Source: Candidatus Magasanikiibacteriota bacterium
GTDB lineage: Bacteria; Patescibacteriota; Patescibacteriia; Magasanikbacterales; GWA2-37-8
Assembly: GCA_030650025.1 (NCBI GenBank)
Contig: JAUSEN010000009.1
Location: 29,144 to 93,143 of the forward strand
Direction: 5' to 3'
DNA: 64,000 bases
The notes beneath the pieces are model-generated. The model was given only the letters and a program-made list of their open reading frames with translations, was not told where the DNA came from and did no database searches. Every line of letters starts with the position of its first letter. Positions within the stretch are counted from its first letter, which is position 1. Made by a program: the position numbers and the translations under genes. Of this stretch, positions 36,603-49,188 are shown in pieces.

Positions 36603-37217
36603 ATGGATTATAGAGTAATACTTATAAATCAGCTAAAATTATTGCCTTATTTTAGCAAAAAAGACATCCTGGCGCTAAGCCGCCAGTTTGGCATAAAGGC
36701 CGAAACAGTCGCCACTTACGTCAGCCGTTCTTTAGCGCGCAAGGACATTATTTCCCTTAGAAATGGTATGTATGTGACTACTGATTTTTATAACCGGCAC
36801 GCTGGGGATATTTCGTACACTTTTTATCTGGCCAATGTACTTCGTTCGCCATCGTATGTTAGCTCATGGTCAGCTTTGCAGTATTATAATTTAGCCACCG
36901 AAGCCATCGGTACGGTTACCTCGGTTACGACAAAGCATACCAGCGCGCACAATAATAAGGCCGGCAGTTTTGCGTATCAGTCGATTAAAAAGGATTTGTT
37001 TTCGAGCTTTACCGCGGTAAATGGCAAGTTTAATTTTTTTATTGCGAGCCCCGCTAAAGCACTTTTTGATCTAGTGTATCTTAAGACGAATCATTTTCGC
37101 TGGATTAATTTTAAGACGGTGGTTGGTCTGGTAGAAGATCTACGGGTTGATATTGATGAAATGGAAATTAAAGAGCGAGATAGTTTTTATGCGTTAGTTA
37201 AAAAGTATTTAAAATAG
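36603..37217 (+). CDS. AbiEi-family antitoxin / transcriptional regulator
   Basis: 204 aa immediately upstream of the NTase toxin with a 3-nt gap, as in the AbiE type IV TA architecture. Confidence 0.6.
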   Translation: MDYRVILINQLKLLPYFSKKDILALSRQFGIKAETVATYVSRSLARKDIISLRNGMYVTTDFYNRHAGDISYTFYLANVLRSPSYVSSWSALQYYNLATEAIGTVTSVTTKHTSAHNNKAGSFAYQSIKKDLFSSFTAVNGKFNFFIASPAKALFDLVYLKTNHFRWINFKTVVGLVEDLRVDIDEMEIKERDSFYALVKKYLK

Positions 37218-37219
37218 TT

Positions 37220-38500
37220 ATGGCTAACCAGCTGACCGCTATTCTTAAAAGTAAACTTGATGGTTTGTCCGCCTATGGTCCGGTGGATGCCGAAGTTAAA
37301 CGCAATGTTCTTAAAGAAGAATTACAGTTTTATGTTTTAAATTTTATTTTCCATCATCCCGTGTATGGCCAGTGGATTATGTATGGCGGGTCGGCCCTGC
37401 GAATTTGCCACAAGCTCAACCGGATGTCGGTGGATTTGGATTTTGAGATACCGCATTCGTGCGACGATAATTTTTTACGCACTTTAGCCAGCGATATTCA
37501 GAATCATTTTGTTAGCACTTACGCGGCCGGGGCGGAGTTTTTAGGCGGGTTAAAAATAACATCCGGGCGCGGTGTTACTTTAAAGTTTGTTTTGGACGGA
37601 GAATTAGACACCGGACACCACTCCAAGCAGTTGCATATTAAAATTGACCTTAATCATTTTGTTCCGCAAAAGTTAGTGATTGAAAGAATCCCCATCAACC
37701 ATGATCAGCTTTCGTTTGTCATCACTACGTATAATATGTCGGCCTTGATGGCCAGCAAAATTGCGGCAATTTTTTCGCGCAAAAAGCGCGGCGTAAATCA
37801 GGAAATATACGATGAAAAAGGCCGCGATATTTATGATTTATTGTGGTACATGGACAAAAAAATCATTCCTGATTTGGATTATTTAAAAGAGAAGGTTCCG
37901 GAAATCGCCGATTTTAAAGTATTATTTAACAAGCTCACTGTTAAAATGAATACCGTGAGCGATAAGAATTTGCGCGCTGATTTAACGCCGCTGTTTGTGG
38001 AGCAGTCATTTATCCAGAACTGGCTTAATAATTGGCGCAATAATTTTTTACGACTGGTTGAGTCTTATGATATTAGAACGGTTGTTAAATTAAAAAATAT
38101 AACAATCGGGAAGGAATTTAGGACAGATATTTTTTTCTTTCATTTCAGCTATGCGGCAAAAGAAGGACGTTTAGTTACATTCACCTATTCTTTAAGTGAT
38201 CATTGGCTAAAATTTCGAGAAGGGAATCTGTCTGAGCTAGATGTAATAGATATAAATAAAATAATTTCGTTGGTAGAGCTGATGCCAGGTCTGAAATTAG
38301 ATGACGGTCTTAAACAGTATATTTTTTTATTCTATAAAAAAATCGAAGAATATCTTAAAAAATCAAACCATGTGATTCTGGGTGATGGAATTAAAACGAA
38401 AACTATTCGTATGACTGCCGATAATCTAAATCAGGCAGAACAAATTGTACTTAATAAGTCGGCCTTACTTTCGTGTGAGTTAGAAGATTTATTAAAATAA
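37220..38500 (+). CDS. AbiEii/AbiGii-family nucleotidyltransferase toxin (DUF1814) with extended C-terminus
   Basis: Has the GGSAL...R.S.DLDFE NTase core. At 426 aa it is about 130 aa longer than typical. Confidence 0.65.
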   Translation: MANQLTAILKSKLDGLSAYGPVDAEVKRNVLKEELQFYVLNFIFHHPVYGQWIMYGGSALRICHKLNRMSVDLDFEIPHSCDDNFLRTLASDIQNHFVSTYAAGAEFLGGLKITSGRGVTLKFVLDGELDTGHHSKQLHIKIDLNHFVPQKLVIERIPINHDQLSFVITTYNMSALMASKIAAIFSRKKRGVNQEIYDEKGRDIYDLLWYMDKKIIPDLDYLKEKVPEIADFKVLFNKLTVKMNTVSDKNLRADLTPLFVEQSFIQNWLNNWRNNFLRLVESYDIRTVVKLKNITIGKEFRTDIFFFHFSYAAKEGRLVTFTYSLSDHWLKFREGNLSELDVIDINKIISLVELMPGLKLDDGLKQYIFLFYKKIEEYLKKSNHVILGDGIKTKTIRMTADNLNQAEQIVLNKSALLSCELEDLLK

Positions 38501-38501
38501 G

Positions 38502-38591
38502 GCCGCGCTTCAATGGAATGCGAGCCGAGCTTCAAAGGACACTGCTCGGCACGATTCTGTTGAATCGGGCATGATTTCGTCAAATCATATG
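38502..38591 (+). promoter_or_regulatory. Conserved upstream element, copy A: GCCGCGCTTCAAWGG ... hairpin ... GACACTGC ... palindrome ATGATTT-cgtca-AAATCAT, then ATG.
   Basis: Shares its 5' 15-mer, a GACACTGC box and a terminal 7-bp-arm palindrome with copy B at 42855-42923. The palindrome arms covary (ATGATTT/AAATCAT here, ATGAATT/AATTCAT in B). Confidence 0.55.
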
Positions 38592-39083
38592 CGAATCCTC
38601 GGCATTGACCCCGGTTTTGGCCGCCTTGGCTACGGCGTGATTGAACAAAAGAAATCCGGCCAAGATTGGCAGGCTCTTACTTACGGCTGTATTTCCACCA
38701 ACCCCAAAGCCACGTTCGTGGAGCGTCTTAAAGATATCCACGAAGAGCTGGTAGATTTAATTAAAGAATATCAGCCCACCCGCGTGGCCGTGGAACAAAT
38801 TTTTTATTTCAAAAACGCCAAGACGGTTATTGACGTGGCGCAGGCGCGCGGAGTAGTAATTCTGACGGCTGTGGAAGCCGGCCTCCCGGTAGACGAATTC
38901 ACGCCCCTCCAAGTTAAACAAGCCATCACCGGCTATGGCCGAGCCGAAAAAGGCCAGATGCAAAAAATGGTGGGAGTAATTTTAAAAATTAAAGAACCAA
39001 TTAAATCCGACGACGCGGCCGATGCCTTGGCCGTGGCATTGACGGCTGGGCAAACTTTATGGCTCAAAAAATTCTTGAAATAA
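38589..39083 (+). CDS. ruvC: Holliday junction resolvase RuvC
   Basis: MRILGIDPGFGRLGYGV matches the RuvC N-terminus with its catalytic Asp. The ATG at 38589 right after the palindrome is preferred over 38571. Confidence 0.85.
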   Translation: MRILGIDPGFGRLGYGVIEQKKSGQDWQALTYGCISTNPKATFVERLKDIHEELVDLIKEYQPTRVAVEQIFYFKNAKTVIDVAQARGVVILTAVEAGLPVDEFTPLQVKQAITGYGRAEKGQMQKMVGVILKIKEPIKSDDAADALAVALTAGQTLWLKKFLK

Positions 39084-39601
39084 ACCCTAAAAAATACCCG
39101 TTTGTTTTAACCGTGCCTAACATTAGGAGCGGCCACAATGTGGGTGCTATGTTTAGGACGGCCGACGGCGCGGGCGTAGATAAAATTTATCTCTGTGGCT
39201 ATAGCCCGCGCCCGCCGCACCATCAAGTTGACAAAGTATCGCTCGGCGCCGAAAAATCCGTGCCGTGGGTAGGGGCAAGGTATGCCTTGCCCCTACTTAA
39301 GAAACTCAAAATTGCGGGTTACCACCTGGTTGCCTTGGAGCAAACCCCAAATAGTGTTAGTATATATAGGTGGAGGCCTGCCCGACTGAATGGCAGTCGT
39401 TCGGGCGGGCCACAGTTTCCACTCGCGCTTATTGTCGGCAACGAGAAGACTGGCGTTCCCCCGCCAATTTTAAAACTTTGTGACACGGTTGTGCATTTGC
39501 CCATGCGTGGCGCCAAAAATAGTTTAAATGTCAGTGTCGCCGCCGGTATTGCTCTGTATTATATTTCCGCAAAATTAATCCACGGGCATTCCCACGCCTA
39601 G
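39059..39601 (+). CDS. SpoU/TrmH-family RNA 2'-O-methyltransferase
   Basis: SPOUT motifs GNEKTGVP and SLNVSVAAGIALY. A GC-rich in-frame palindromic insert at about 39380-39425 encodes RPARLNGSRSGGP. Confidence 0.65.
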   Translation: MAQKILEINPKKYPFVLTVPNIRSGHNVGAMFRTADGAGVDKIYLCGYSPRPPHHQVDKVSLGAEKSVPWVGARYALPLLKKLKIAGYHLVALEQTPNSVSIYRWRPARLNGSRSGGPQFPLALIVGNEKTGVPPPILKLCDTVVHLPMRGAKNSLNVSVAAGIALYYISAKLIHGHSHA

Positions 39602-39693
39602 CCGCGCTGTCCTCGCCCAGAGGACAAGCGGCGTGCGAACTAAAATTTATTGTCAGCGACAGCGTCCAATCAAATATAATCCTGGTTAAATTT

Positions 39694-40416
39694 ATGCAAT
39701 CCACTGTTGAACTTTTTCGTCATTTTATAAAATCACTTCCGCCTCTAGTGCCGGAGTCGCTATTCGCGCGCGCGAACCACGCCCTTGAGCATGTTGAGAA
39801 CGACCCCAGTGTTACCTTGCCCGAAGTGGAAGACACTATGATAGAATTTGGTTATGAGCTTTGGCCGTATATCCGGGCCTATCGAGAGTTTTTGTCGCTT
39901 TACGAGGCTAAGCTGGGCGAGCATTTTTTATTGCCGCGGCTTTCTCCGGCGCTAGCCGAGCGCTACCATAATTTTAAAGTTTGCGGCGGCACGCTTCGTG
40001 ATTTGCATAGTGGCAATGGAGCTCAATTTTTTTCCGACGAAGAAAGAGGCGAGCTGTGCGCCGCGCTGGTAGGCTTAACGGCCGACACCCGCCGTTATAC
40101 CGACCACCAGCTTAAGTCTGCCGATCGCCAAAAGTTTTTAGAGCGCGTGGCCGAGTTCAAAATTTTAATTTCTGACGTGGCTAATAGGCTAGGGAGCCTC
40201 CTGGCCCTGGCGGACAGCGAACAAGACCACCCTACCTTAGCCAGCGAAATTAGGCAGCGCGTGCGCGCTTTTGAGTATGGTCTCTGCTACTTAGGCCCCG
40301 CCCTCGATTACGCCGCTGTTTGCCAGGCTCCCGAGTTTTTTCATGGCCGCCGGCACGAACTGAATCGCTTGCGCGGCATTCACCAGCCGAGGGTGGCGAG
40401 TTTTAGCCAAAATTAG
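39694..40416 (+). CDS. hypothetical protein
   Basis: 240 aa with moderately elevated GC and no family recognised. Confidence 0.35.
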   Translation: MQSTVELFRHFIKSLPPLVPESLFARANHALEHVENDPSVTLPEVEDTMIEFGYELWPYIRAYREFLSLYEAKLGEHFLLPRLSPALAERYHNFKVCGGTLRDLHSGNGAQFFSDEERGELCAALVGLTADTRRYTDHQLKSADRQKFLERVAEFKILISDVANRLGSLLALADSEQDHPTLASEIRQRVRAFEYGLCYLGPALDYAAVCQAPEFFHGRRHELNRLRGIHQPRVASFSQN

Positions 40417-40427
40417 CGGCCTTTATC

Positions 40428-40456
40428 TTGACAAAGGCTAATTTTTCTGCTATAGT
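40428..40456 (+). promoter_or_regulatory. Sigma70-like promoter TTGACA-17-TATAGT ahead of the decarboxylase operon, followed by a structured leader of about 175 nt.
   Basis: cttgacaaaggctaatttttctgctatagt. Confidence 0.5.
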
Positions 40457-40630
40457 ATCTACGTTTTTTACAATTTTTCAAATCTGCCCCGTTGCCGCCC
40501 GTCGGCACGCTGGCTTTTATTCTTAACCTGCTAAGTCCTAACAATTCCCCTAAGTGAACCCGAGGATTTCTGCCGCCAAGGCAGAAGCCGAGGGTGAGCG
40601 ACAAGATAGTTGTAGGATGATAAAAGCGTC

Positions 40631-42022
40631 ATGGCCAATACCAAGAAAAATAATTTTAAGAAATTTTGGAAACTAGGAAAAAAAGAAAATAATACCCAGT
40701 ATTTTGACATCGATAAAAACGGCGATCTCATAATCTTCGAAGGCAATTATCAATACAATGTGCGGGAGCTAGCGGCGCGTTTTGGCACGCCGCTCAAAAT
40801 CATGTTGCCTTATATCATTGAACAGCGCGTCGAGGACATGATGGACCTGTTCGAGGATTGTATTCGCGAAAACAAATATCGCGGCCAGTTTTATTACCAC
40901 TACCCCATGAAAGTAAACCAAAGCCGCGAATTCGTCCTGCCCCTTATTTCCGAAGGCGCCAATTTGGAAACCACCTCGGCCAACGAACTTTGGGTGGTTA
41001 AGCGCATGTGGCAGCAGAACCGTTTTAACAGCCGCATTAAAGTGATTTGCAATGGTCCCAAAACCGAGCAATATGTTAGCTTAATCGCCGAACTTAAAGA
41101 CAACGGCCTCGATATTGTGCCGATTATTGAGGATTTAGAAGAAGCGGAAACACTTAAAGATTTTCGAGGGCAAGTAGGCGTGCGTTTTGACAACGATTTA
41201 AAAGTAGAGTCGCATTGGGACAAAAAGGTAGAGCGGTTTGGACTAAGTCTGGAAGAGCTCTATTCGCTCGGCAAAATCAAAAACCTCACCATGCTTCATT
41301 ACCACTTGGGCTGTGAAGTTAAGCGGGAGAAATATTTCGTGCAATCCCTTAAAAAGGCCATGGAGGTATATGTGCGCCTTAAAAAAATTAACCCTTCGCT
41401 CGACACCATTAATATGGGCGGCGGGTTTCGGGCTAATTACTATGTTGACCCGCGCGGTGGCTACACCTATTCCATGAATTCCGTGGTGCGGGCCATTATT
41501 AAATTTTTAAGCAAGTTTTGCGCTGAAAATAACATTCCCCACCCAAACATTATCAACGAATGGGGGTCCTACATTGCCGCCCCGGCGCAAATAACTGTTT
41601 ATTCGGTAATTTCCACCAAACGGCTCCCGCGTTCGGCCGCCAAACAGTGGTATATTATTGACGGCAGTCTGCAAACCCAGCTCCTCGACACTTGGGCGAT
41701 TCATAAACAATGGCATGTGGTGCCGGTAAACAACGCTCGAGCGCCGAAATTAACGCGCACCTGGCTGGCTGGCCTCTCTTGCGACGCGGATGATAAATAT
41801 ACTGCCGGCGGTGGGTATCTTCTTTTACCGCGCGTGGAGGATTTAGAAGAAAAGGAAAAACAGTATATTGCTTTTCTTGACACGGGTAATTATCAGGATG
41901 GTTTTACCAATCACCACTGCCTCAATGCCGCGCCCGCGAAAGTTATCTGCCAAAATGGCGATGTCAAATTAATCAAGAAGCGCGAAAGCCCGGAAGATAT
42001 TGGTAAATTATTTGGGTGGTAA
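40631..42022 (+). CDS. PLP-dependent (fold-type III) arginine/ornithine decarboxylase
   Basis: HYPMKVNQ (PLP lysine), GGGF Gly-rich loop, and a substrate-site CDADD motif. Operon neighbours are a DHS-like gene and agmatinase. Confidence 0.65.
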   Translation: MANTKKNNFKKFWKLGKKENNTQYFDIDKNGDLIIFEGNYQYNVRELAARFGTPLKIMLPYIIEQRVEDMMDLFEDCIRENKYRGQFYYHYPMKVNQSREFVLPLISEGANLETTSANELWVVKRMWQQNRFNSRIKVICNGPKTEQYVSLIAELKDNGLDIVPIIEDLEEAETLKDFRGQVGVRFDNDLKVESHWDKKVERFGLSLEELYSLGKIKNLTMLHYHLGCEVKREKYFVQSLKKAMEVYVRLKKINPSLDTINMGGGFRANYYVDPRGGYTYSMNSVVRAIIKFLSKFCAENNIPHPNIINEWGSYIAAPAQITVYSVISTKRLPRSAAKQWYIIDGSLQTQLLDTWAIHKQWHVVPVNNARAPKLTRTWLAGLSCDADDKYTAGGGYLLLPRVEDLEEKEKQYIAFLDTGNYQDGFTNHHCLNAAPAKVICQNGDVKLIKKRESPEDIGKLFGW

Positions 42023-42043
42023 GATTCTAAATTAAAGAAAATC

Positions 42044-42128
42044 ACGTAGAGACGTTGCACTGCAACGTCTCTTTGCACTGCAACGTCTCTTTGCACTGCA
42101 ACGTCTCTTTGCACTGCAACGTCTCTTT
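42044..42128. repeat. REP family-1 array: four tandem 18-nt units forming GAGACGTTGCA-c-TGCAACGTCTC hairpins.
   Basis: cacgtagagacgttgcactgcaacgtctctttgcactgcaacgtctcttt..., immediately 5' of the RAYT-1 start. Confidence 0.8.
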
Positions 42129-42135
42129 AAAAATT

Positions 42136-42780
42136 ATGATAGAAAAATTTAAAAATAAATATCGAATACCATCGGCACGTTTGCCTGATTGGGATTACAG
42201 CAATGCCGGTTTATATTTTGTAACAATTTGCACAAAAAATAGATTTTGTTATTTTGGCGATATTATTAAAAATAAGATGTGGTTATCTAAAATGGGTAAA
42301 ATTGCACAGCAATATTGGTCGGAAATTCCCAATCATTTTTCACATGTCTATCTGGATGAATATGTAATAATGCCTAATCATATTCACGGTATTATCAGAA
42401 TCACGGAAAACAATGTAAATCATAATCACGTAGAGACGTTGCACTGCAACGTCTCTTTGCACTGCAACGTCTCCGAAACAACATCGCCAAAAACGCCAGA
42501 GACGTTGCACTGCAACGTCTCTACGCAAACGATGATGCAGAAATCGCTAATGTCAAAAATTTCGCCTCGGACTGGTTCGCTAGGCACCATTATTCGTTCG
42601 TTTAAATCAATTTTTACCAGAACAATCAATCAAGACCCTACATTGCAATATTTTGGTTGGCAAGAACGCTACTACGAATCGATCATCCGCGATCAAAAAT
42701 CTCTGGAACACATTCGCGGATACATTCGTGATAATCCAAAGAATTGGGAAAAAGATGAATTATTCCCGCATATTAAATAA
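42136..42780 (+). CDS. IS200/IS605-family Y1 (HuH) transposase, REP-associated (RAYT-1)
   Basis: DWDYSNAGLYFVTICTKNR and HuH YVIMPNHIHGII, with YY in ...FGWQERYYESIIRD... at the presumptive catalytic Tyr. Start refined to MIEKF...; the first 27 tool-ORF codons are REP translation. Confidence 0.7.
   Translation: MIEKFKNKYRIPSARLPDWDYSNAGLYFVTICTKNRFCYFGDIIKNKMWLSKMGKIAQQYWSEIPNHFSHVYLDEYVIMPNHIHGIIRITENNVNHNHVETLHCNVSLHCNVSETTSPKTPETLHCNVSTQTMMQKSLMSKISPRTGSLGTIIRSFKSIFTRTINQDPTLQYFGWQERYYESIIRDQKSLEHIRGYIRDNPKNWEKDELFPHIK
42428..42523 (+). repeat. REP family-1 copies (2.5 units) inserted in-frame inside RAYT-1.
   Basis: cgtagagacgttgcactgcaacgtctctttgcactgcaacgtctcc ... cagagacgttgcactgcaacgtctcta, encoding ETLHCNVSLHCNVS...ETLHCNVST. 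Confidence 0.75.
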
Positions 42781-42854
42781 ATATTTTTAAACAAAACATT
42801 CGGCCTTGCATTTTCTCGCTATTTTGTTAAAATAAGCTAGTATTTTGTAATTGC

Positions 42855-42923
42855 GCCGCGCTTCAAAGGTCGTTCGCGACATCGCGAGAGACACTGCGCG
42901 GCATGAATTTGTCAATTCATATG
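42855..42923 (+). promoter_or_regulatory. Conserved upstream element, copy B (see 38502-38591), ending in palindrome ATGAATT-tgtca-AATTCAT, then ATG.
   Basis: gccgcgcttcaaagg...gagacactgcgcggcatgaatttgtcaattcatATG. The outer stem is GCCGCGC/GCGCGGC. Confidence 0.55.
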
Positions 42924-44030
42924 AATTCTAAACAACTCTCCAAACTTTCTCCCAAACTGCGCGGGCTGATTATTGCCGAGAATAGCGCTGGTTCCAAGCG
43001 CACGGGGGGCCTCGCGGCGCACATTGCCAAAGCGCGACGGCCGGTAACGCAGTTTGCCGAAGAGACTCTCAACCACCTCAATGCCGGCTCCACACTGCAG
43101 TCTGCGCTTTGGTTAAAAAAGCATTTAGATAATGGTGGTAAACTTGTAGTAACTTTAGCTGGGGCGCTAAGCAGTTTTGAAATCGGCGTGATGCTCGCGG
43201 ATTTAATTCGCGCTGGCAAAGTACATTTGGTTTCCGCGACCGGCGCTAACCACGAAGAATCGTATTATCGCTATGTGGCTTATTCGCACTACGCCTATAT
43301 CCCGCGCTATACAGAATTGACGCCGGAGCAAGAGGCCGAATTGCGCGACGCCGGCCTGCGCCGCATTACCGACACTTTTTTGCCAGAAGACGAGAGCGTG
43401 CGCCTTATGGAGCCGCATTTACTAAAGATGTGGAGAGAGGCCGAGAAAAAAGGGGAGAGTTATTACCCCCACGAATATTTTCGGAGACTGTTTAAAAAGA
43501 ATTTAATCAAGCCAGACAAGGGCGCTAACCAAGCCGATTGCTGGGCCTATGCCGCTTATCAAAAAAATATTCCCATCGTGATTCCGGGCTTTGAAGATTC
43601 AACAATGGGCAATATTTTTGCGAGTTATGTTTATAATGGCCCGCATAAGCCAACCGGGGACACGGTTTTGAGTGGTCGCGTTATGAAAACCGGTCTCGAC
43701 TATTTTGGCTTCATGTATGACTGGTATATGAAAGAATCCAAAAATACCCCCATCGCTTTTCTCCAGCTCGGTGGCGGCATCGCGGCCGACTTCCCAATTT
43801 GCGTAGTGCCTTCACTTAAACATGATCTAAAATTACATAATAAAGTCCGCGACTGGGCTGGGTTTATCGAAATTGGCTCTTCGCCCATGTCGTACGGTTC
43901 CTATTCCGGCGCCGGCGGCAAAGAAAAAATTACGTGGGACAAATTATCTACCAAAAGTTATTATCAAATTATCCAGAGCGATGTGACCGTGGTGTTTCCA
44001 TGGATGGCGGCGATTTTGCTTGGGTTGTAA
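42921..44030 (+). CDS. deoxyhypusine synthase-like / homospermidine synthase-like protein
   Basis: DHS-like blocks VSATGANHEES, IPIVIPGFEDSTMGN and LQLGGGIAADF. Start is placed at the ATG after the palindrome; the upstream ATG at 42903 is an alternative. Confidence 0.65.
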   Translation: MNSKQLSKLSPKLRGLIIAENSAGSKRTGGLAAHIAKARRPVTQFAEETLNHLNAGSTLQSALWLKKHLDNGGKLVVTLAGALSSFEIGVMLADLIRAGKVHLVSATGANHEESYYRYVAYSHYAYIPRYTELTPEQEAELRDAGLRRITDTFLPEDESVRLMEPHLLKMWREAEKKGESYYPHEYFRRLFKKNLIKPDKGANQADCWAYAAYQKNIPIVIPGFEDSTMGNIFASYVYNGPHKPTGDTVLSGRVMKTGLDYFGFMYDWYMKESKNTPIAFLQLGGGIAADFPICVVPSLKHDLKLHNKVRDWAGFIEIGSSPMSYGSYSGAGGKEKITWDKLSTKSYYQIIQSDVTVVFPWMAAILLGL

Positions 44031-45117
44031 TTTTATGAAGAGAAACAAGCTTAACAAACAACAAAAAATCGCCAGCTACGACCCCGGCATGATTTATGCC
44101 GAGCATGGCTTGTTTGGTTTGCCGTTTACTAACGAGGAGTCCGATGTGGTTTTAATTCCGATGCCCTGGGAGGTAACCACGTCATATCGGGATGGCACTG
44201 CCCAAGGTCCAGAATTTATGACTAAGTCTTCATATCAAGTAGATCTCTATGACGAGGATATAAAAAATGCTTGGCACGCTGGCATTGCCATGGAGTCTAT
44301 TTCTAAATATTGGTTAAAGAAGAACAAAGAATTGCGCCCGCTGGCCGAGAAATGTATTGCAAATATCGAGAAGGGTGGCACGCCTCAAGATAAAAAAGTT
44401 ATTAAATTCTACGAAAAAATTAACGCCGCCAGCCACGAGCTAAATACCTGGATGAAAGCTGAATCCGCCCGGCTGTTAAATGCCGGTAAGTTGGTAGGGG
44501 TAGTGGGCGGTGAGCATAGCGTTCCGTATGGCCTTATGCAAGCTCTTGGCGAAAAATATAATAAATATTCTATTTTACACATCGACGCTCACGCCGATTA
44601 CCGCCAAGCGTACGAAGGGTTTGCCCACTCGCACGCCTCTATCCAATACAACGCGGGGTTACTGCCGTGTGTAGAAAATCAGGTTTTGTTGTCTATTCGA
44701 GATTATTCCGAAGAAGAGGCTGGTTATATTGCCAAATCAAGAGGCAAGATTATCGCTTTTTCCGACCGTATTTTAAAACGCAACAGCTATACCGGCACGA
44801 CTTGGCAAAAGCAGTGTGAACAAATTATTAAGCCCCTCGGTGAGAATGTTTATATTAGTTTTGATATTGACGCGCTGGATCCGAGCCTCTGCCCGCATAC
44901 CGGCACGCCCGTACCAGGGGGCCTGGAGTTTGAACAAGTTTTTTATCTTCTAGAGTCACTCCTCAAAGCCGGTAAAAAAATAATAGGCTTTGATCTGTGC
45001 GAAGTCGCTCCCGGCGCCGGAAGTAATGGCGAGTGGGACGCCATCGTCGGCGCCCGAGCGTTGTATCGGTTGAGCCTGCTTCTTGCCAAGTCGCATGGTA
45101 AAAAAGTAGGGCAGTAG
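44020..45117 (+). CDS. agmatinase (ureohydrolase family)
   Basis: Mn-binding motifs GGEHS, HIDAHADY and SFDIDALDPSLCPHTGTPVPGG. Confidence 0.8.
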   Translation: MGCNFMKRNKLNKQQKIASYDPGMIYAEHGLFGLPFTNEESDVVLIPMPWEVTTSYRDGTAQGPEFMTKSSYQVDLYDEDIKNAWHAGIAMESISKYWLKKNKELRPLAEKCIANIEKGGTPQDKKVIKFYEKINAASHELNTWMKAESARLLNAGKLVGVVGGEHSVPYGLMQALGEKYNKYSILHIDAHADYRQAYEGFAHSHASIQYNAGLLPCVENQVLLSIRDYSEEEAGYIAKSRGKIIAFSDRILKRNSYTGTTWQKQCEQIIKPLGENVYISFDIDALDPSLCPHTGTPVPGGLEFEQVFYLLESLLKAGKKIIGFDLCEVAPGAGSNGEWDAIVGARALYRLSLLLAKSHGKKVGQ

Positions 45118-45133
45118 CTTTTTAGCTTTAGCT

Positions 45134-45667
45134 ATGCCCAAAAAAGTTCTCCTTATCATCGCCCACGAAGGTTTTCAGCCCATGGAATACAGCGCGCCGA
45201 AAAAAGTTTTGGCTGATGCCGGGGTAACGGTAGTAACCGCGAGCGACGCGTCCGGGATTGCAACGTCCGCCCACACTGGCGAGCGGGTTATGGTAGATTT
45301 GACGCTCCTCGAAGTCCGAGCGGTTGATTATGACGGTATTTTTTTTATCGGCGGCCAGGGAGCCTTGGATCATTTAGATAACGAAGATTCGTACCGAGTA
45401 GCGCGCGAGGCCGCCGCTTCCGGCAAACTCTGGGGCGCGATTTGCGTTTCACCCCGCATTCTGGCTAACGCCGGGGTGCTCAAAAACAAAATCGCCACTG
45501 GTTGGGATGGCGATAATGAGCTGGCCGGAATTTTAGCGGCCGCCGGCGCCACTTACCAGCGGGAATCAGTAGTCCAAGATGGTCAATTAATTACGGGGAG
45601 CGGCCCGGCCGCGGCCGAGGAATTTGGGAAAACAATTTTGGCGGTGTTGACTATGGTATTGGCTTGA
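45134..45667 (+). CDS. DJ-1/PfpI-family protein
   Basis: Nucleophile elbow AICVSP and a class I glutamine-amidotransferase-like fold. Length is 177 aa. Confidence 0.8.
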   Translation: MPKKVLLIIAHEGFQPMEYSAPKKVLADAGVTVVTASDASGIATSAHTGERVMVDLTLLEVRAVDYDGIFFIGGQGALDHLDNEDSYRVAREAAASGKLWGAICVSPRILANAGVLKNKIATGWDGDNELAGILAAAGATYQRESVVQDGQLITGSGPAAAEEFGKTILAVLTMVLA

Positions 45668-46457
45668 GCTGAACTGTTGGTTTGATTTTAATAGTTTTGA
45701 TAATCGCGTCCATTATTTTGGTATTTGTTTCCGCAAATATCTGCCGCGCGCGATTACAATCCGCGTCATCGGTCGCACACCCTTGGGTCGCGATTCCGTA
45801 GGTAAACTGGAAAGTAAACACATAATCATTTTGCTCGAGATTTATATAGTAATCGTGCGTTTGCCCTCCTTCCGCGTAGCCAGTAACGTATTCTTTACGT
45901 GGCCGTGTTAGGCCCGAAATAGTTACCGTATCAATTTTCGGCTTGACTATTTTTGAATCATCGCCAGCATAATCATCAACCACGACTTCAGTTCGATAAT
46001 CGTCTTTGGGTACAACCGTAACGGAAAGTTGTAATGGAAAAGGACTGCCCGGATCCCCGGCAAAAAATGGCCGCCCCATACTCAAATTAAAATATCCCGG
46101 CCGGGAATAGATCACTTCTTTTTTAATCTTCCATGACAAGGGGTGAAAAAAATAAAAAGAATAATTTTTAAGGCTGGTCCTGGAGGTGAACTTTGGCCAA
46201 GTGGCTGCTTGGTTCAATTCTGTCTGAAGAATAACCAGATCGTTCCCAGAACTATCCTGATAAAATTCGTTTGTAGTTTCCGGTATTAAAGAAACTGGCT
46301 TGAGAGCAGTACTCGTGGGCATTTGTGATTCAAGCGGTGGTGAGCTGGTAACAACCATTCGGATAGATTGTTTGGCAGAACAGCCAATGCCAGTTAGCAA
46401 AAGCAAAGCAATGCCTACCCAAGCAAGTCCATATTGCCTACGGGGTGGTAGATACAT
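45651..46457 (-). CDS. hypothetical exported protein or lipoprotein
   Basis: N-terminal signal with ...LLLLTGIGCSAK. Confidence 0.4.
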   Translation of the reverse strand: MYLPPRRQYGLAWVGIALLLLTGIGCSAKQSIRMVVTSSPPLESQMPTSTALKPVSLIPETTNEFYQDSSGNDLVILQTELNQAATWPKFTSRTSLKNYSFYFFHPLSWKIKKEVIYSRPGYFNLSMGRPFFAGDPGSPFPLQLSVTVVPKDDYRTEVVVDDYAGDDSKIVKPKIDTVTISGLTRPRKEYVTGYAEGGQTHDYYINLEQNDYVFTFQFTYGIATQGCATDDADCNRARQIFAETNTKIMDAIIKTIKIKPTVQLKPIP

Positions 46458-46495
46458 ACAATTATGGCAGGAAGTTTTTATACAGCTAACGAAGG

Positions 46496-47491
46496 TCAGT
46501 TAAGTTTTTCTGGTTTAACAGTTGGAAATCGCTCGATCATTTTTTCAATCTCGGTTTGATTTAACAACAGCCCCGCGTGCGGCCCGTGCGCCGAAATAAC
46601 CCCCGTGCTGTTCGCTGTTCCCCATTCTAGGGCGTGAGGCAGGTCATGCCGCGCCAGGCGCGCCGCGAGGTACCCGGCCGAGAAAGCGTCGCCCGCGCCG
46701 GTTTTGGACACTACCTTTACCGGGTAACTGCCAATTTGCCAAACCTCTTCTTTACTGCCCGCGAAGGCTCCGCGCGGGCCGTTTGTCAATATTACTTCTT
46801 TAGCGCCCAACAGAAGTAACGCTTCAATTAAGGCTTTTTCCGATTTTGCCGCGGCGAGACTCTGGCCGCTAATTTTTTCCGCCTCTTCTAAATTAACAAT
46901 TAAAATATCGGCGTGGCGGGCGGCTTCGCGCAAGTCCTCCCGCGCGTTTTTTAGCATGTATGACCCCGGGTTGACGGCCAAGCGCACGCTTTTGTGAGTG
47001 TCTAGAAAGGCTAGCAAATTTTTTTGAATGTTCTCAAAACCTTCAGATAATCCGCTATAAAATATCCACGAACATTCCGGAATCGGCTCGGGCCAGATAT
47101 AATTTTTCTTTTCCGCGTAAGATAAAATTGTGCGCTCCGCTTTGTAGTTTAAAACAATTGAGTAGCGCGTGTCGGCCCCGGCTTCTTTAGTTATTAAGCT
47201 CGTGTCGACTTTGAATTTTTTAAATAAGTCTATCACTAGCTGGCCATTAGAATCATCGCCGACGGTTGAGATAAAAGCGGTTTTGAGGCCAAGTCGACTT
47301 AAGGCCACAGTGGTGTTGGCGGCGTTACCCCCCAGTGTCTGGAAGCTGTCTGCAATTGATATTTTAGCGCCATACTCTAAACACAGCTGCTTTCTTCCGG
47401 CAATTTCCTTTAATTCTACCTCGTTGGTTTTATCGCCAATCTGAACGTGGGTATCAATAATCGGGTCGCCGATTCCAAGGACATCAAACAT
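46496..47491 (-). CDS. PfkB-family carbohydrate/nucleoside kinase
   Basis: GG motif GGNAANT and the C-terminal anion hole TGAGDAFSAGYL. Confidence 0.8.
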   Translation of the reverse strand: MFDVLGIGDPIIDTHVQIGDKTNEVELKEIAGRKQLCLEYGAKISIADSFQTLGGNAANTTVALSRLGLKTAFISTVGDDSNGQLVIDLFKKFKVDTSLITKEAGADTRYSIVLNYKAERTILSYAEKKNYIWPEPIPECSWIFYSGLSEGFENIQKNLLAFLDTHKSVRLAVNPGSYMLKNAREDLREAARHADILIVNLEEAEKISGQSLAAAKSEKALIEALLLLGAKEVILTNGPRGAFAGSKEEVWQIGSYPVKVVSKTGAGDAFSAGYLAARLARHDLPHALEWGTANSTGVISAHGPHAGLLLNQTEIEKMIERFPTVKPEKLN

Positions 47492-47521
47492 ATGATTTAT
47501 TCGAAATCATGCCGCGCAACG

Positions 47522-47869
47522 TCAGTTGAAGCGCGGCGACATCTTTCCGTCGTTATGTTCGTATTTTTCCGTATTAGCTACCGTATGGTGGTGCTTGCCG
47601 CGCCAAATTTGTATTAACTCGCGGCCCGCCACCAGAATCATGCCAACTGTGGCGAACATTATTACGTAATCCTGGCGCACTAGGGCGTATACAAACAGCG
47701 ACGCCGCCCCAACCACGAACACGGCATCCTGCCGCCGCTCGGCTTCGAGGAGGATGGCGTACATTAAGGCCAAGCCTCCCATGAATCCAATTACTATAAC
47801 CGCCAGGTTAACATAGCTAAAGTCCATTCCCGGCACCGAGTTTACAACGAAGTTAAGAAATTTATCCAT
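47522..47869 (-). CDS. hypothetical small membrane protein
   Basis: 115 aa with 3 TM segments. Confidence 0.3.
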   Translation of the reverse strand: MDKFLNFVVNSVPGMDFSYVNLAVIVIGFMGGLALMYAILLEAERRQDAVFVVGAASLFVYALVRQDYVIMFATVGMILVAGRELIQIWRGKHHHTVANTEKYEHNDGKMSPRFN

Positions 47870-47914
47870 AGCAATTAAAATTTTAAAAATTAATTAGTTA
47901 ATTTAAATTTTATT

Positions 47915-48224: not shown

Positions 48225-49172
48225 TTAGGGTTTCCACGTATTCACATACCCAATCGCTTCGAGCGCGGCCACCACCCCGGTGCCCGCGGCAATCGCGATT
48301 TGTTTATGAGGAATATTGGTAACGTCGCCCGCCGCGAAGATGCCCGGGACGCTGGTATGGCAGAGCTGGTCAGTCACAATTTCGCCGAGCGAATTTTTTT
48401 TGAGCTTACTAGCGAATTGAGAATTAGGAATCATGCCAATATGAACCATGACGCCTTGCACGACAATAGTTTTATTTTCGCCCGCGGCGGTTTTATATTT
48501 TAACGCCTCTACTTTAGTGTCACCCACAATTTCGGTCGTATCCGCTTCGTAAATTATTTCGATATTATTTAACGCTTTTACTTTTTCAATCAAAATCGCG
48601 TCTCCCTTCGGGAAGCCGCCTTGGAATTCGGGCGTATTTTTAAATTTGGTTAAGAGGTATTCTTTTTCCGCGAGGCTACCCATCATAAGAGCGCTCTCGA
48701 GCGCCGAGTTTCCCGCGCCAATCGTGGCCGTGATCTTCTTTTTATAAAGCGGGCCATCGCAAACCGTGCAATACGTCACACCCTTGCGGTCGAGCTTGTC
48801 TTCTCCGGGCACGCCAAGGCGCTTGGGGTGGATGCCAGTGCCGATAATTACGGTTTTGGTTTCGAGCGCTACGGCTTCGCCGTTCGATTTTTCAGCGCGA
48901 ACTACGTGGTAATTTTTTGTGGGGACAATGTCCGTCACGCGCCAACCTTCTTCTATATTAACATCATAGCTTTTGGCGTGCTCGGCGAATTTTTGCGCCA
49001 AATCAAAGCCATCGATGCTGATGATGCCCGGCCAGTTATTGGTTTCGCCGCTCAAAGCCACTTCGCCGCCGATATTTTCGGTAATTAAGCGAAAATTTAA
49101 TTTGCGCCGCGCCGCGTAAATGGCCGCGCTACAGCCTACCGCCGCGCCGCCGATAATCACTAAATCCAGCAT
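48225..49172 (-). CDS. trxB: thioredoxin-disulfide reductase
   Basis: FAD site IIGGAAVGCSAAIYAAR, redox-active CTVCDG, and an NADPH GxGxxA motif. Confidence 0.85.
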   Translation of the reverse strand: MLDLVIIGGAAVGCSAAIYAARRKLNFRLITENIGGEVALSGETNNWPGIISIDGFDLAQKFAEHAKSYDVNIEEGWRVTDIVPTKNYHVVRAEKSNGEAVALETKTVIIGTGIHPKRLGVPGEDKLDRKGVTYCTVCDGPLYKKKITATIGAGNSALESALMMGSLAEKEYLLTKFKNTPEFQGGFPKGDAILIEKVKALNNIEIIYEADTTEIVGDTKVEALKYKTAAGENKTIVVQGVMVHIGMIPNSQFASKLKKNSLGEIVTDQLCHTSVPGIFAAGDVTNIPHKQIAIAAGTGVVAALEAIGYVNTWKP

Positions 49173-49188
49173 ATGATTTATTCGAGAT

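Follow-up and report, generated by a model that had tools for sequence, protein, structure and literature searches.

REP/BIME sequences, which go together with RAYT (Y1) transposases and carry GTAG- or CGTC-tagged palindromes (PMC3733652), are short, GC-rich palindromic repeats, intergenic and dispersed, with a copy number that varies by lineage; they are often co-transcribed and can stabilise mRNA, and their usual place is 3′ of a gene, with no fixed orientation. The ERIC/IRU, pneumococcal BOX/RUP and Neisseria Correia elements, small dispersed repeats that are co-transcribed with bacterial genes and have been the subject of reviews (PMC3184786, PMC2229807), are modular and RNA-foldable with nested or mosaic forms, adjoin unrelated genes, are gained and lost between relatives and can alter the expression of a neighbour; they have terminal inverted repeats and usually target-site duplications, and they occur in both orientations at variable distances from genes. 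The element described here was found in a stretch of 64,000 nucleotides (the window) from a Candidatus Magasanikiibacteriota bacterium (contig JAUSEN010000009.1, positions 29,144 to 93,143). It resembles REP/BIME in composition, dispersal and behaviour, and the second set in its modularity and its patchy occurrence before unrelated genes, but it differs from both: it joins two unlike hairpins whose order is constant, occurs in sense orientation only and ends exactly at a start codon, with no GTAG or CGTC end tag, the bases that flank its GC hairpin being variable (agc/aac/acg and others).

Known leaders offer a further comparison. In the split ribosome-binding site of phage T4 gene 38 and in the shunt of the cauliflower mosaic virus 35S leader, local structure loops out RNA and brings the point of ribosome entry or termination nearer to the start; unlike the element, these are single viral instances, which use a Shine-Dalgarno (SD) sequence or 40S scanning. 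The initiation region of the gamma-proteobacterial rpsA mRNA is efficient without a canonical SD sequence and relies on a particular fold with successive hairpins (PMC10931766). This represents the nearest precedent for the possible function of the element, which has two or more successive hairpins and no SD sequence. The rpsA hairpin loops carry GGA, and the first loop of the element often has GGA too. The rpsA leader, however, belongs to a single gene, is vertically conserved and autoregulatory, and has AU-rich single-stranded spacers between its hairpins, to which S1 binds for initiation, whereas the element is multi-copy, precedes unrelated genes and has no single-stranded AU spacer, either between its hairpins or before the AUG. 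Finally, near-identical 5′ regions before unrelated genes, within and between genomes, have been described as putative mobile promoters (PMC3488235); the distribution pattern is the same, but no promoter was found inside the element.

The window contains three copies of the element, upstream of ruvC, of a deoxyhypusine synthase (DHS)-like gene and, on the minus strand, of a pfkB-family kinase gene, in addition to one decayed remnant. In each copy a 7-bp GC hairpin (GCCGCGC–loop–GCGCGGC) is directly followed by a 7-bp AU hairpin (ATGAWTT–N4/5–AAWTCAT), and this directly by the true ATG. The initial annotation had described two copies, and the parts that it listed as shared by 38502-38591 and 42855-42923 could indeed be read in both regions; the third and cleaner copy, on the minus strand (47540..47489) and abutting the pfkB ATG, had been overlooked. 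The 7-bp arms assigned to the terminal palindrome were correct, and so was the compensation of the T/A difference between them (ATGATTT/AAATCAT vs ATGAATT/AATTCAT), but the spacer consists of 4 nt (CGTC, TGTC) and not of 5, one A having been counted twice. The composite palindrome ATGAWTTYGTCAAWTCATATG occurs 2 times in the 64 kb, against 0.00 expected from shuffles, and the looser form ATGA-N8-16-TCATATG occurs 3 times against 0.11, the third occurrence being on the minus strand at 47510..47489. The 15-mer by itself is in no excess over chance (4 sites with at most 3 mismatches, 6.3 expected), and the significance rests on the composite pattern rather than on the 15-mer alone. A covariance model made from simple units and run with filters off retrieved exactly three units in the window, and all three copy regions fold better than shuffled sequence (z = -3.4, -3.5 and -2.0).

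The element is not confined to this genome. A strict pattern (GGCATGAWTTN{4,5}AAWTCATATG) was scanned over 185,579 species-representative genomes and returned 85 stretches, about 75 of which have the GC hairpin, a feature not required by the pattern, and abut a downstream open reading frame (ORF); the other ~10 (Paenibacillus, Planococcus, Draconibacterium and others) have neither upstream hairpin nor ORF and look like chance, for which a hand calculation at equal base frequencies predicts ~9. The ~75 copies derive from metagenome-assembled genomes (MAGs) labelled Magasanik-, Nomura-, Kaiser- or Adlerbacteria, Paceibacterota, or Parcubacteria/Patescibacteria group, and from third-party bins whose labels (Saccharibacteria, Gammaproteobacteria) are unconfirmed; Magasanikbacteria and Nomurabacteria are separate candidate phyla within the Parcubacteria group according to the NCBI taxonomy. 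All ~75 copies are in sense orientation with an exact junction to the ATG, beyond which the second codons display no sequence preference. The consensus of 56 simple units is GCCGCGY-YTYAAWGGACGWT-RCGCGGC-ATGATTT-CGNN(N)-AAATCAT-ATG, with a mean column identity of 86%. The basic unit measures about 48 nt. Its GC hairpin has a 13-nt loop (loop 1), semi-conserved among candidate phyla (AA..GACG), the AU hairpin follows without any spacer, and the spacer within the AU hairpin is mostly 4 nt long, and 5 nt in ~15 of the 75 copies.

The genes that follow are of many kinds: profile matches assign 78 downstream proteins to 116 Pfam families, among them EF-Tu, S1-domain and SecE proteins (three each), Hsp70, MreB and ArgRS (two each) and also IleRS, CTP synthase, ATP synthase beta, RecA, FtsZ, L2 and PNPase, besides many membrane or unknown proteins. 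The genes concerned include tuf, groEL, dnaK, recA, ftsZ, secE and ribosomal-protein genes, and the covariance model, when run on the fetched loci, added copies upstream of groES, secE, rplX, rpmE and ftsZ. The recurrence before unrelated genes that had been seen at two loci is borne out, and a hairpin acting in RNA as a translational control module, or a portable cassette, stay viable readings of it. Copies within one genome have common signatures, such as GCCGCGT/ACGCGGC in CAYWFM01 and CAYIJG01, loops starting with CTC in JAHFHV01, or TTTAAT..GATT in CALRAE01, as is typical of repeats that spread, or become homogenised, inside each genome. In one locus (L043:5417-5455, minus strand), a copy precedes a very basic ORF of 20 codons, MGKGNNSRRKEAKKPKKAKK, which may represent an unannotated small protein.

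No match to Rfam 15 was found in the whole window at the gathering score, nor did any match with E <= 10 over 38400-47700 overlap the three copies, and ARAGORN detected no tRNA or tmRNA in the window. The strict pattern is absent from 2.9 million viral contigs, and blastn of the unit against phage and plasmid collections gave no match; a phage, plasmid or viral origin was discarded for this reason. Other known classes were also discarded: an integron attC site, since the sole GTT is followed by GCGC and not by RRRY (as read from the sequence) and the copies precede housekeeping genes, not cassettes, and a TIGR/tigRNA or CRISPR-like unit, since the element is not organised in arrays and its loop is too short for spacers. 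Literature searches that covered leaders in the candidate phyla radiation (CPR), SD-less initiation, structured RNAs, transcription start sites, promoter motifs and repeats yielded no description of the element, although it may be described elsewhere. The element represents a widespread two-hairpin family, apparently undescribed, that ends at start codons of Patescibacteria, and its identity as a structured, dispersed leader family can be stated with high confidence.

Evidence for the structure comes from covariation, and the proposal that selection acts on the hairpins is borne out by compensatory changes in both stems across the ~75 copies. In the 56 simple units, 99.1% of the cells pair. 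Two-sided changes affect four pairs, among them the uppermost one of stem 1, with C-G in 38 units and U-A in 14. The observed values were reached in 0/500 shuffles, and sliding the partner columns lowered the pairing to 22-57%. Stem 2 is largely fixed by the search pattern and hence contributes little information in this alignment; the inner AU-type helices of the extended copies, which are not forced by the pattern, covary freely (GATTC/GAATC, CAATTT/AAATTG, GATCT/AGATC). The extended form is a second unit nested inside the first. The consensus fold of 13 extended copies, including the one at ruvC, is a three-way junction, in which P1 surrounds P2 and P3 and is followed by the terminal hairpin P4, and 8/23 of its pairs have compensatory changes. 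Two orthologous pairs of copies (L066/L068 and L054/L072) also differ by compensatory changes, which suggests selection on the structure after insertion. Mutual information revealed no covariation linking loop 1 with loop 2 or with the flanks, and nothing beyond the top pair of stem 1, so that the idea of a tertiary contact of loop 1 with either of them was dropped.

Perfect 7-bp inverted-repeat arms with a compensated difference are also what would be expected of a DNA operator, on which a dimeric transcription factor would bind ATGAWTT/AAWTCAT over the start codon, as the initial annotation had considered. This explanation is very improbable: the arms lie 4 nt apart in most copies but 5 nt apart in others, those of the inner units change their sequence freely provided that pairing is kept, the palindrome is always in sense orientation and always accompanied by a GC hairpin that an operator would not need, and it is not conserved at orthologous genes.

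Indeed, the element proved absent from the corresponding positions in relatives. A metagenome scan with RuvC gave 67 orthologous loci (44-81% identity), and the covariance model found the element upstream of ruvC in 0/67; one unit was present in all 284 kb of these loci, and it lies beside another gene. In most relatives a short, AT-rich spacer separates ruvC from a preceding yebC. With filters off, the model found no unit in the 54 kb of five syntenic loci of close relatives, in which DHS is 81-84% identical and the order is ruvC-spoU-hyp-decarboxylase-...-DHS-...-pfkB, and relatives that have other insertions at the slot of the Y1 transposase gene likewise lack the element. A genome-wide search for further copies had been proposed together with a check for conservation: many copies were found, but the palindrome is missing at orthologous ruvC and DHS genes, and a conserved ruvC and DHS regulon is not supported, the element being present at ruvC, DHS or pfkB in 0/5 syntenic loci and at ruvC in 0/67 orthologues. 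Loss in every sampled relative being less parsimonious, the absence at orthologous sites indicates that the three window copies were gained in this lineage. As judged from these comparisons, the element is dispersed and was recently gained at ruvC, DHS and pfkB in a Magasanikbacteria genome, and is not a gene-specific conserved operator.

The same comparisons bear on a regulated switch, in which loop 1, the AU hairpin or both would bind an RNA-binding protein, a small RNA or a small molecule that controls the translation of growth genes. The semi-conserved loop, the abundance of growth and housekeeping functions in the gene set and the decoy AUG of the AU hairpin, paired to the CAU that precedes the real AUG, would all fit; on the other hand, the gene set differs between relatives, unlike that of a regulon, some copies (L034, L046, L051) have an unrelated hairpin in place of loop 1, the loops and flanks do not covary, and two simple hairpins leave little room for a ligand pocket. 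Such a switch appears quite improbable.

The position of the element relative to genes is asymmetric. Nearly all copies lie 0 nt from the downstream ATG, whereas the interval to the upstream gene is variable: a long ORF on the same strand ends within 15 nt of the 5′ end of the element in 32/72 copies, and the gap exceeds 40 nt in 39/72. A fixed downstream and a variable upstream distance imply that the element belongs to the downstream gene. An intrinsic terminator was rejected, because the loop is of 13 nt, the tail is ATGATTTCG, no terminator-like site was called at the elements and the distance is fixed to the downstream gene.

A mobile promoter cassette, providing transcription to the downstream gene, was one of the functions initially suggested. 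Homologous upstream sequences stand before unrelated genes, as they do in putative mobile promoters (PMC3488235), and both ruvC and DHS lie downstream of inserted foreign genes (AbiEii, Y1 transposase). Nevertheless, a scan of 38300-47900 found no sense-strand sigma-70-like site, with -35 and -10 hexamers 16-18 nt apart, and no terminator-like site inside any copy; the best candidate -35/-10 hexamers in the element are wrongly spaced, as read from the sequence. Family-wide, promoter-like boxes are visible upstream at variable distances, with no preferred -10 position, and many copies begin 1-15 nt past an upstream stop codon. A promoter-like block near copy 2 lies outside the element, upstream of it, and is shared with an element-free relative (L154). 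We regard a promoter cassette as hardly credible. A fixed transcription start just before the GC hairpin, which would make the latter a 5′-terminal stabiliser, was also rejected, the -10-like hexamers having no preferred distance.

The DHS locus illustrates the arrangement. The block TTGCAT-N16-TAAAAT (42806..42833, plus strand) lies upstream of copy 2 and is conserved in L154; on the basis of this conservation and of its resemblance to the consensus, it is probably a promoter. The GC hairpin of copy 2 (42855..42902, plus strand; covariance model score 41.5 bits) is formed by GCCGCGC at 42855-42861 and GCGCGGC at 42896-42902, and its loop, TTCAAAGG...GACACT, is broken by an inserted hairpin of 20 nt (42870-42889). 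The terminal AU hairpin (42903..42920, plus strand; ATGAATT - TGTC - AATTCAT) is followed by the deoxyhypusine-synthase-family gene (42921..44030, plus strand; Pfam PF01916), with its true start at ATG 42921 and a product of 369 aa, which is 100% identical to a 369-aa NCBI protein from a Candidatus Magasanikbacteria MAG. Window and L154 have in common the block CCTTGCATTTTCTC..TTTG.TAAAATA, after which homology ends; the window then has ~57 extra bases, with the GC hairpin, before an AT-rich stretch that ends with TCATATG in both. The position of copy 2 between the conserved promoter-like block and the ATG would place the element in the 5′ untranslated region (5′UTR), and argues that it is not itself the promoter. 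At this site, the only one with usable flanking homology, comparison of the filled with the empty state reveals an insertion or replacement of ~57 nt without flanking direct repeats.

At ruvC the element takes its nested, extended form. The 5′ half-unit of copy 1 (38502..38523, plus strand) consists of GCCGCGC, TTCAATGG and a linker; in the consensus structure of the 13 extended copies, GCC 38502-38504 and GGC 38568-38570 form the outer stem P1. The inner GC hairpin P2 (38524..38550, plus strand; GCCGAGC - TTCAAAGGACACT - GCTCGGC, 3′ arm at 38544-38550) has arms that covary with GCCGCGC/GCGCGGC of copies 2 and 3, and its pairs covary among the extended copies. The 15-mer at 38502 had been taken for the opening arm of this hairpin; GACACTGCTCGGCA, however, pairs with the near-copy GCCGAGC at 38524-38530. 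The inner AU-type hairpin P3 (38552..38567, plus strand; CGATTC - TGTT - GAATCG) has compensatory changes in 4/6 pairs among the extended copies, and the terminal hairpin P4 (38571..38588, plus strand; ATGATTT - CGTC - AAATCAT) ends at the -1 position of the start codon. The covariance model score is 37.5 bits over 38521-38573. The ruvC gene follows (38589..39083, plus strand; Pfam RuvC E = 3e-50), and 1 nt separates the element from the TAA stop of the upstream ORF. Copy 1 is nearly identical to a copy (L025) in another Magasanikbacteria MAG, where it precedes a different gene.

Copy 3 is a simple unit (47489..47540, minus strand; 70.2 bits, E = 5e-13). Its GC hairpin is GCCGCGC (47537-47531) - TTCAACTGACGTT - GCGCGGC (47517-47511), and its AU hairpin ATGATTT (47510-47504) - CGAAT - AAATCAT (47498-47492) is followed by ATG (47491-47489) of the pfkB-family kinase gene (46496..47491, minus strand; Pfam PfkB E = 2e-41). 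An ORF at 47522..47869 (minus strand) runs into this copy, so that its last six codons, MSPRFN, derive from the GC hairpin and its TGA stop lies within loop 1; the loop reads AACTGACG in place of the usual AAAGGACG, a variant that was perhaps retained for the stop codon it gives to the upstream ORF. The remnant, TCGAATAAATCATATG (16 nt, 49170..49185, minus strand), adjoins the start codon of the ORF 48225..49172. Its sequence is that of the 3′ end of copy 3, 1.7 kb away, without any difference, and it lacks the 5′ arm and the GC hairpin.

At these loci the second ATG, which abuts the palindrome as initially proposed, is the real start, given that the RuvC and DHS N-termini match those of orthologues or of the NCBI protein (RuvC begins MRILGIDPG at ATG 38589, and its orthologues begin at the same residues) and that a 5-nt loop, where present, shifts the upstream ATG to another frame. 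This ATG had been described as out-of-frame-neutral; in fact it is in frame in copies 1 and 2 (18 nt), and out of frame in copy 3 (19 nt, 5-nt loop). With the true start at the second ATG, the element does not encode protein, and the first ATG does no more than complement the CAU before the real AUG. Two coding-related candidates were discarded: a conserved short peptide from the upstream ATG, its frame being broken by the 5-nt loops, and stop codons in all three frames, since frames 0 and +2 of the consensus, as read from the sequence, are open.

The genes concerned seem to be translated without SD sequences. Upstream regions in the window are AT-rich and devoid of the motif: GGAG or GAGG at -20..-4 was found for 5/57 long ORFs in the window, the share being 0-6% both in the ruvC loci and in the remaining groups with the element, and at most 9% in any group. 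Several sigma-70-like -10 boxes are located just 4-12 nt before the ATG, both at gene starts of the window and in loci L002-L153, which suggests many very short or absent leaders in these genomes. Among the candidates for loop 1, an SD mimic or a CsrA site was rejected, since the GGA is not invariant (TGA, AGA and AAC variants exist) and the genomes do not use SD sequences; likeness to a sigma-54 GG-N10-GC motif and to boxA was taken as coincidence, the GG not being conserved.

Against this background, the explanation that we favour, to which we would give about an even chance, is that of a portable transcribed leader that acts on translation initiation or on mRNA insulation or stability. Confidence in a role of this kind is moderate to low. 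The element would be transcribed within the mRNA, as a 5′UTR or as an intercistronic spacer, as indicated by the block upstream of copy 2 and by the copies that fill whole spacers, and it would act after transcription, in genomes without SD use, as a self-contained portable initiation leader. Its two local hairpins would lock about 45 nt upstream, so that the AUG and the early coding region could stay unpaired whatever lies 5′; moreover, the helices abut, and the 5′ foot of the first would meet the 3′ foot of the second, bringing an upstream stop codon or the 5′ end of the mRNA beside the AUG. In an organism without SD use, this foot-to-foot geometry could support termination-reinitiation or 5′-end-dependent loading; the GC clamp, for its part, could be an exonuclease barrier that protects flanking cistrons. 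New copies would arise within a lineage by copying, and would be kept where they are helpful or harmless to expression. Consistently with this proposal, the predicted unpaired probability over AUG..+12 rises from 0.535 for a shuffled element to 0.62 for the native one, the native value being higher in 79% of cases (n=57, p = 8e-7); for the ruvC, DHS and pfkB genes it is predicted to be 0.57, 0.70 and 0.17, respectively, vs a mean of 0.47 for all window genes. In addition, essential and highly expressed genes tolerate the element, which therefore cannot block initiation.

A more specific form of the same idea, possible but doubtful, is a portable module for ribosome entry or hand-over: the ~48 nt would be looped out, a terminating ribosome or the 5′ end would come to lie beside the AUG at the foot of the AU helix, and initiation would be internal and SD-independent, as in shunting or at an internal ribosome entry site, with the module spreading between Patescibacteria genes as an expression unit.

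Several observations weigh against a leader acting on translation. The accessibility gain is modest, and copy 3 is predicted to be poorly accessible; SD-less start codons are expected to need unstructured surroundings (PMC3121790), and a helix that reaches up to -1 would usually be an obstacle to initiation. Short native spacers suffice to account for the upstream stop codons that cluster within 15 nt, and this clustering was for that reason dropped as evidence of coupling. The non-canonical cells of the stems are 9 G.U-type vs 6 A.C-type, an uninformative ratio that cannot serve as proof of RNA folding; without such an asymmetry, covariation does not prove that it is the sense RNA, rather than single-stranded DNA, that folds. 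Loop 1 is replaced or interrupted in L034, L046, L051 and window copy 2, so its conservation may reflect recent common descent and not function. Both the transcription of the element and its effect on translation are inferred from sequence.

The lack of strand asymmetry would suit a different origin, namely a purely selfish, non-autonomous mobile DNA whose single-stranded hairpins are moved in trans, for instance by an HUH/Y1-type enzyme, and which is tolerated only just 5′ of a start codon, with no benefit to the host. This is unlikely, but has some points in its favour: all three window copies are lineage-specific gains, the distribution is patchy in close relatives (3 units/64 kb here vs 1/284 kb there), copies within a genome share lineage signatures, nested copies and a decayed remnant exist, and a Y1 transposase gene adjoins copy 2. 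The unit as a whole, however, has no terminal inverted repeats, and no target-site duplication emerged from the comparison of filled and empty sites; the neighbouring Y1/RAYT gene has different, GTAG-tagged palindromes; sense orientation and an exact ATG junction are constant in ~75 copies, without preference for a second codon; orthologous copies evolve by compensation, hence under selection on structure after insertion; and the element sits on essential, highly expressed genes (tuf, groEL, ribosomal-protein genes). The two explanations can be combined, in that a mobile element can also be functional. Two narrower candidates were rejected: a miniature inverted-repeat transposable element, since the 5′ GCCGCGC and the 3′ AAATCAT are not reverse complements and each belongs to its own hairpin, with no target-site duplication at the single informative site, and the neighbouring RAYT as partner of the element, since the Y1 gene is flanked and interrupted by GTAGAGACGTTGCACTGCAACGTCTCT repeats and not by the element.

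The 32/72 copies that fill the whole spacer between co-directional genes would also be consistent with an RNA processing signal, by which an endoribonuclease would recognise the hairpins and cut at one set position, such as a hairpin foot or the site immediately 5′ of the AUG, splitting cistrons and leaving a leaderless or hairpin-protected 5′ end. The exact AUG junction, the lack of SD sites and the promoters very near the ATG, which make leaderless or near-leaderless mRNAs likely, point in the same direction. Nevertheless, no ribozyme or known processing motif was matched, even at E <= 10, a cut before the first ATG would produce out-of-frame starts in the copies with 5-nt loops, and the hairpins are too short for RNase III; we consider processing improbable.

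The neighbourhood of the copies has features of its own. Directly upstream of ruvC, the stretch 36603-38500 (plus strand) holds a gene for an AbiEii nucleotidyltransferase toxin (Pfam PF08843) and, before it, a gene for a 204-aa protein that matches no Pfam family and may be the antitoxin; in relatives this position is taken by yebC, by an integrase gene or by others. Both ruvC and DHS gained the leader element downstream of inserted foreign genes. The DHS gene belongs to a polyamine cluster (40631-45117, plus strand) that also includes a pyridoxal phosphate (PLP)-dependent Orn/Arg decarboxylase and an arginase-family (agmatinase-like) gene, and which is split here by the transposase; in relatives the same slot is occupied by a TrmB-family regulator, SET, CN hydrolase or PAD_porph genes. 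Copy 2 begins 75 nt downstream of the Y1_Tnp gene (IS200-like, RAYT-like; 42055-42780, plus strand). The transposase probably starts at ATG 42137, and is preceded by a GTAG-tagged palindrome, cacGTAGAGACGTTGCACTGCAACGTCTCT, and three tandem units of TTGCACTGCAACGTCTCT (42045-42130); two more of the same palindromes (42428-42525) break the gene in frame between the HxH region and the C-terminal part, which gives rise to odd 'LHCNVS' repeats in the translation. As far as its sequence tells, the gene resembles a RAYT that has been invaded by REP-like repeats of its own.

Patescibacteria (candidate phyla radiation), which account for a sizeable part of bacterial diversity and have nearly all escaped cultivation, start translation without SD sites. 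The element may show how these organisms express genes without ribosome-binding sites, and an element of ~48 nt that is near-invariant in several candidate phyla, covarying, newly gainable and ends at the start codon would represent a new class of cis-acting RNA elements. It would also give a practical handle for expression engineering in the few cultivable Patescibacteria, and it could help to correct start-codon annotation, as gene callers can choose the in-frame decoy ATG 18 nt upstream. Were it mostly selfish, it would remain a dispersed repeat whose geometry of insertion has no precedent, in sense orientation only and flush with the ATG.

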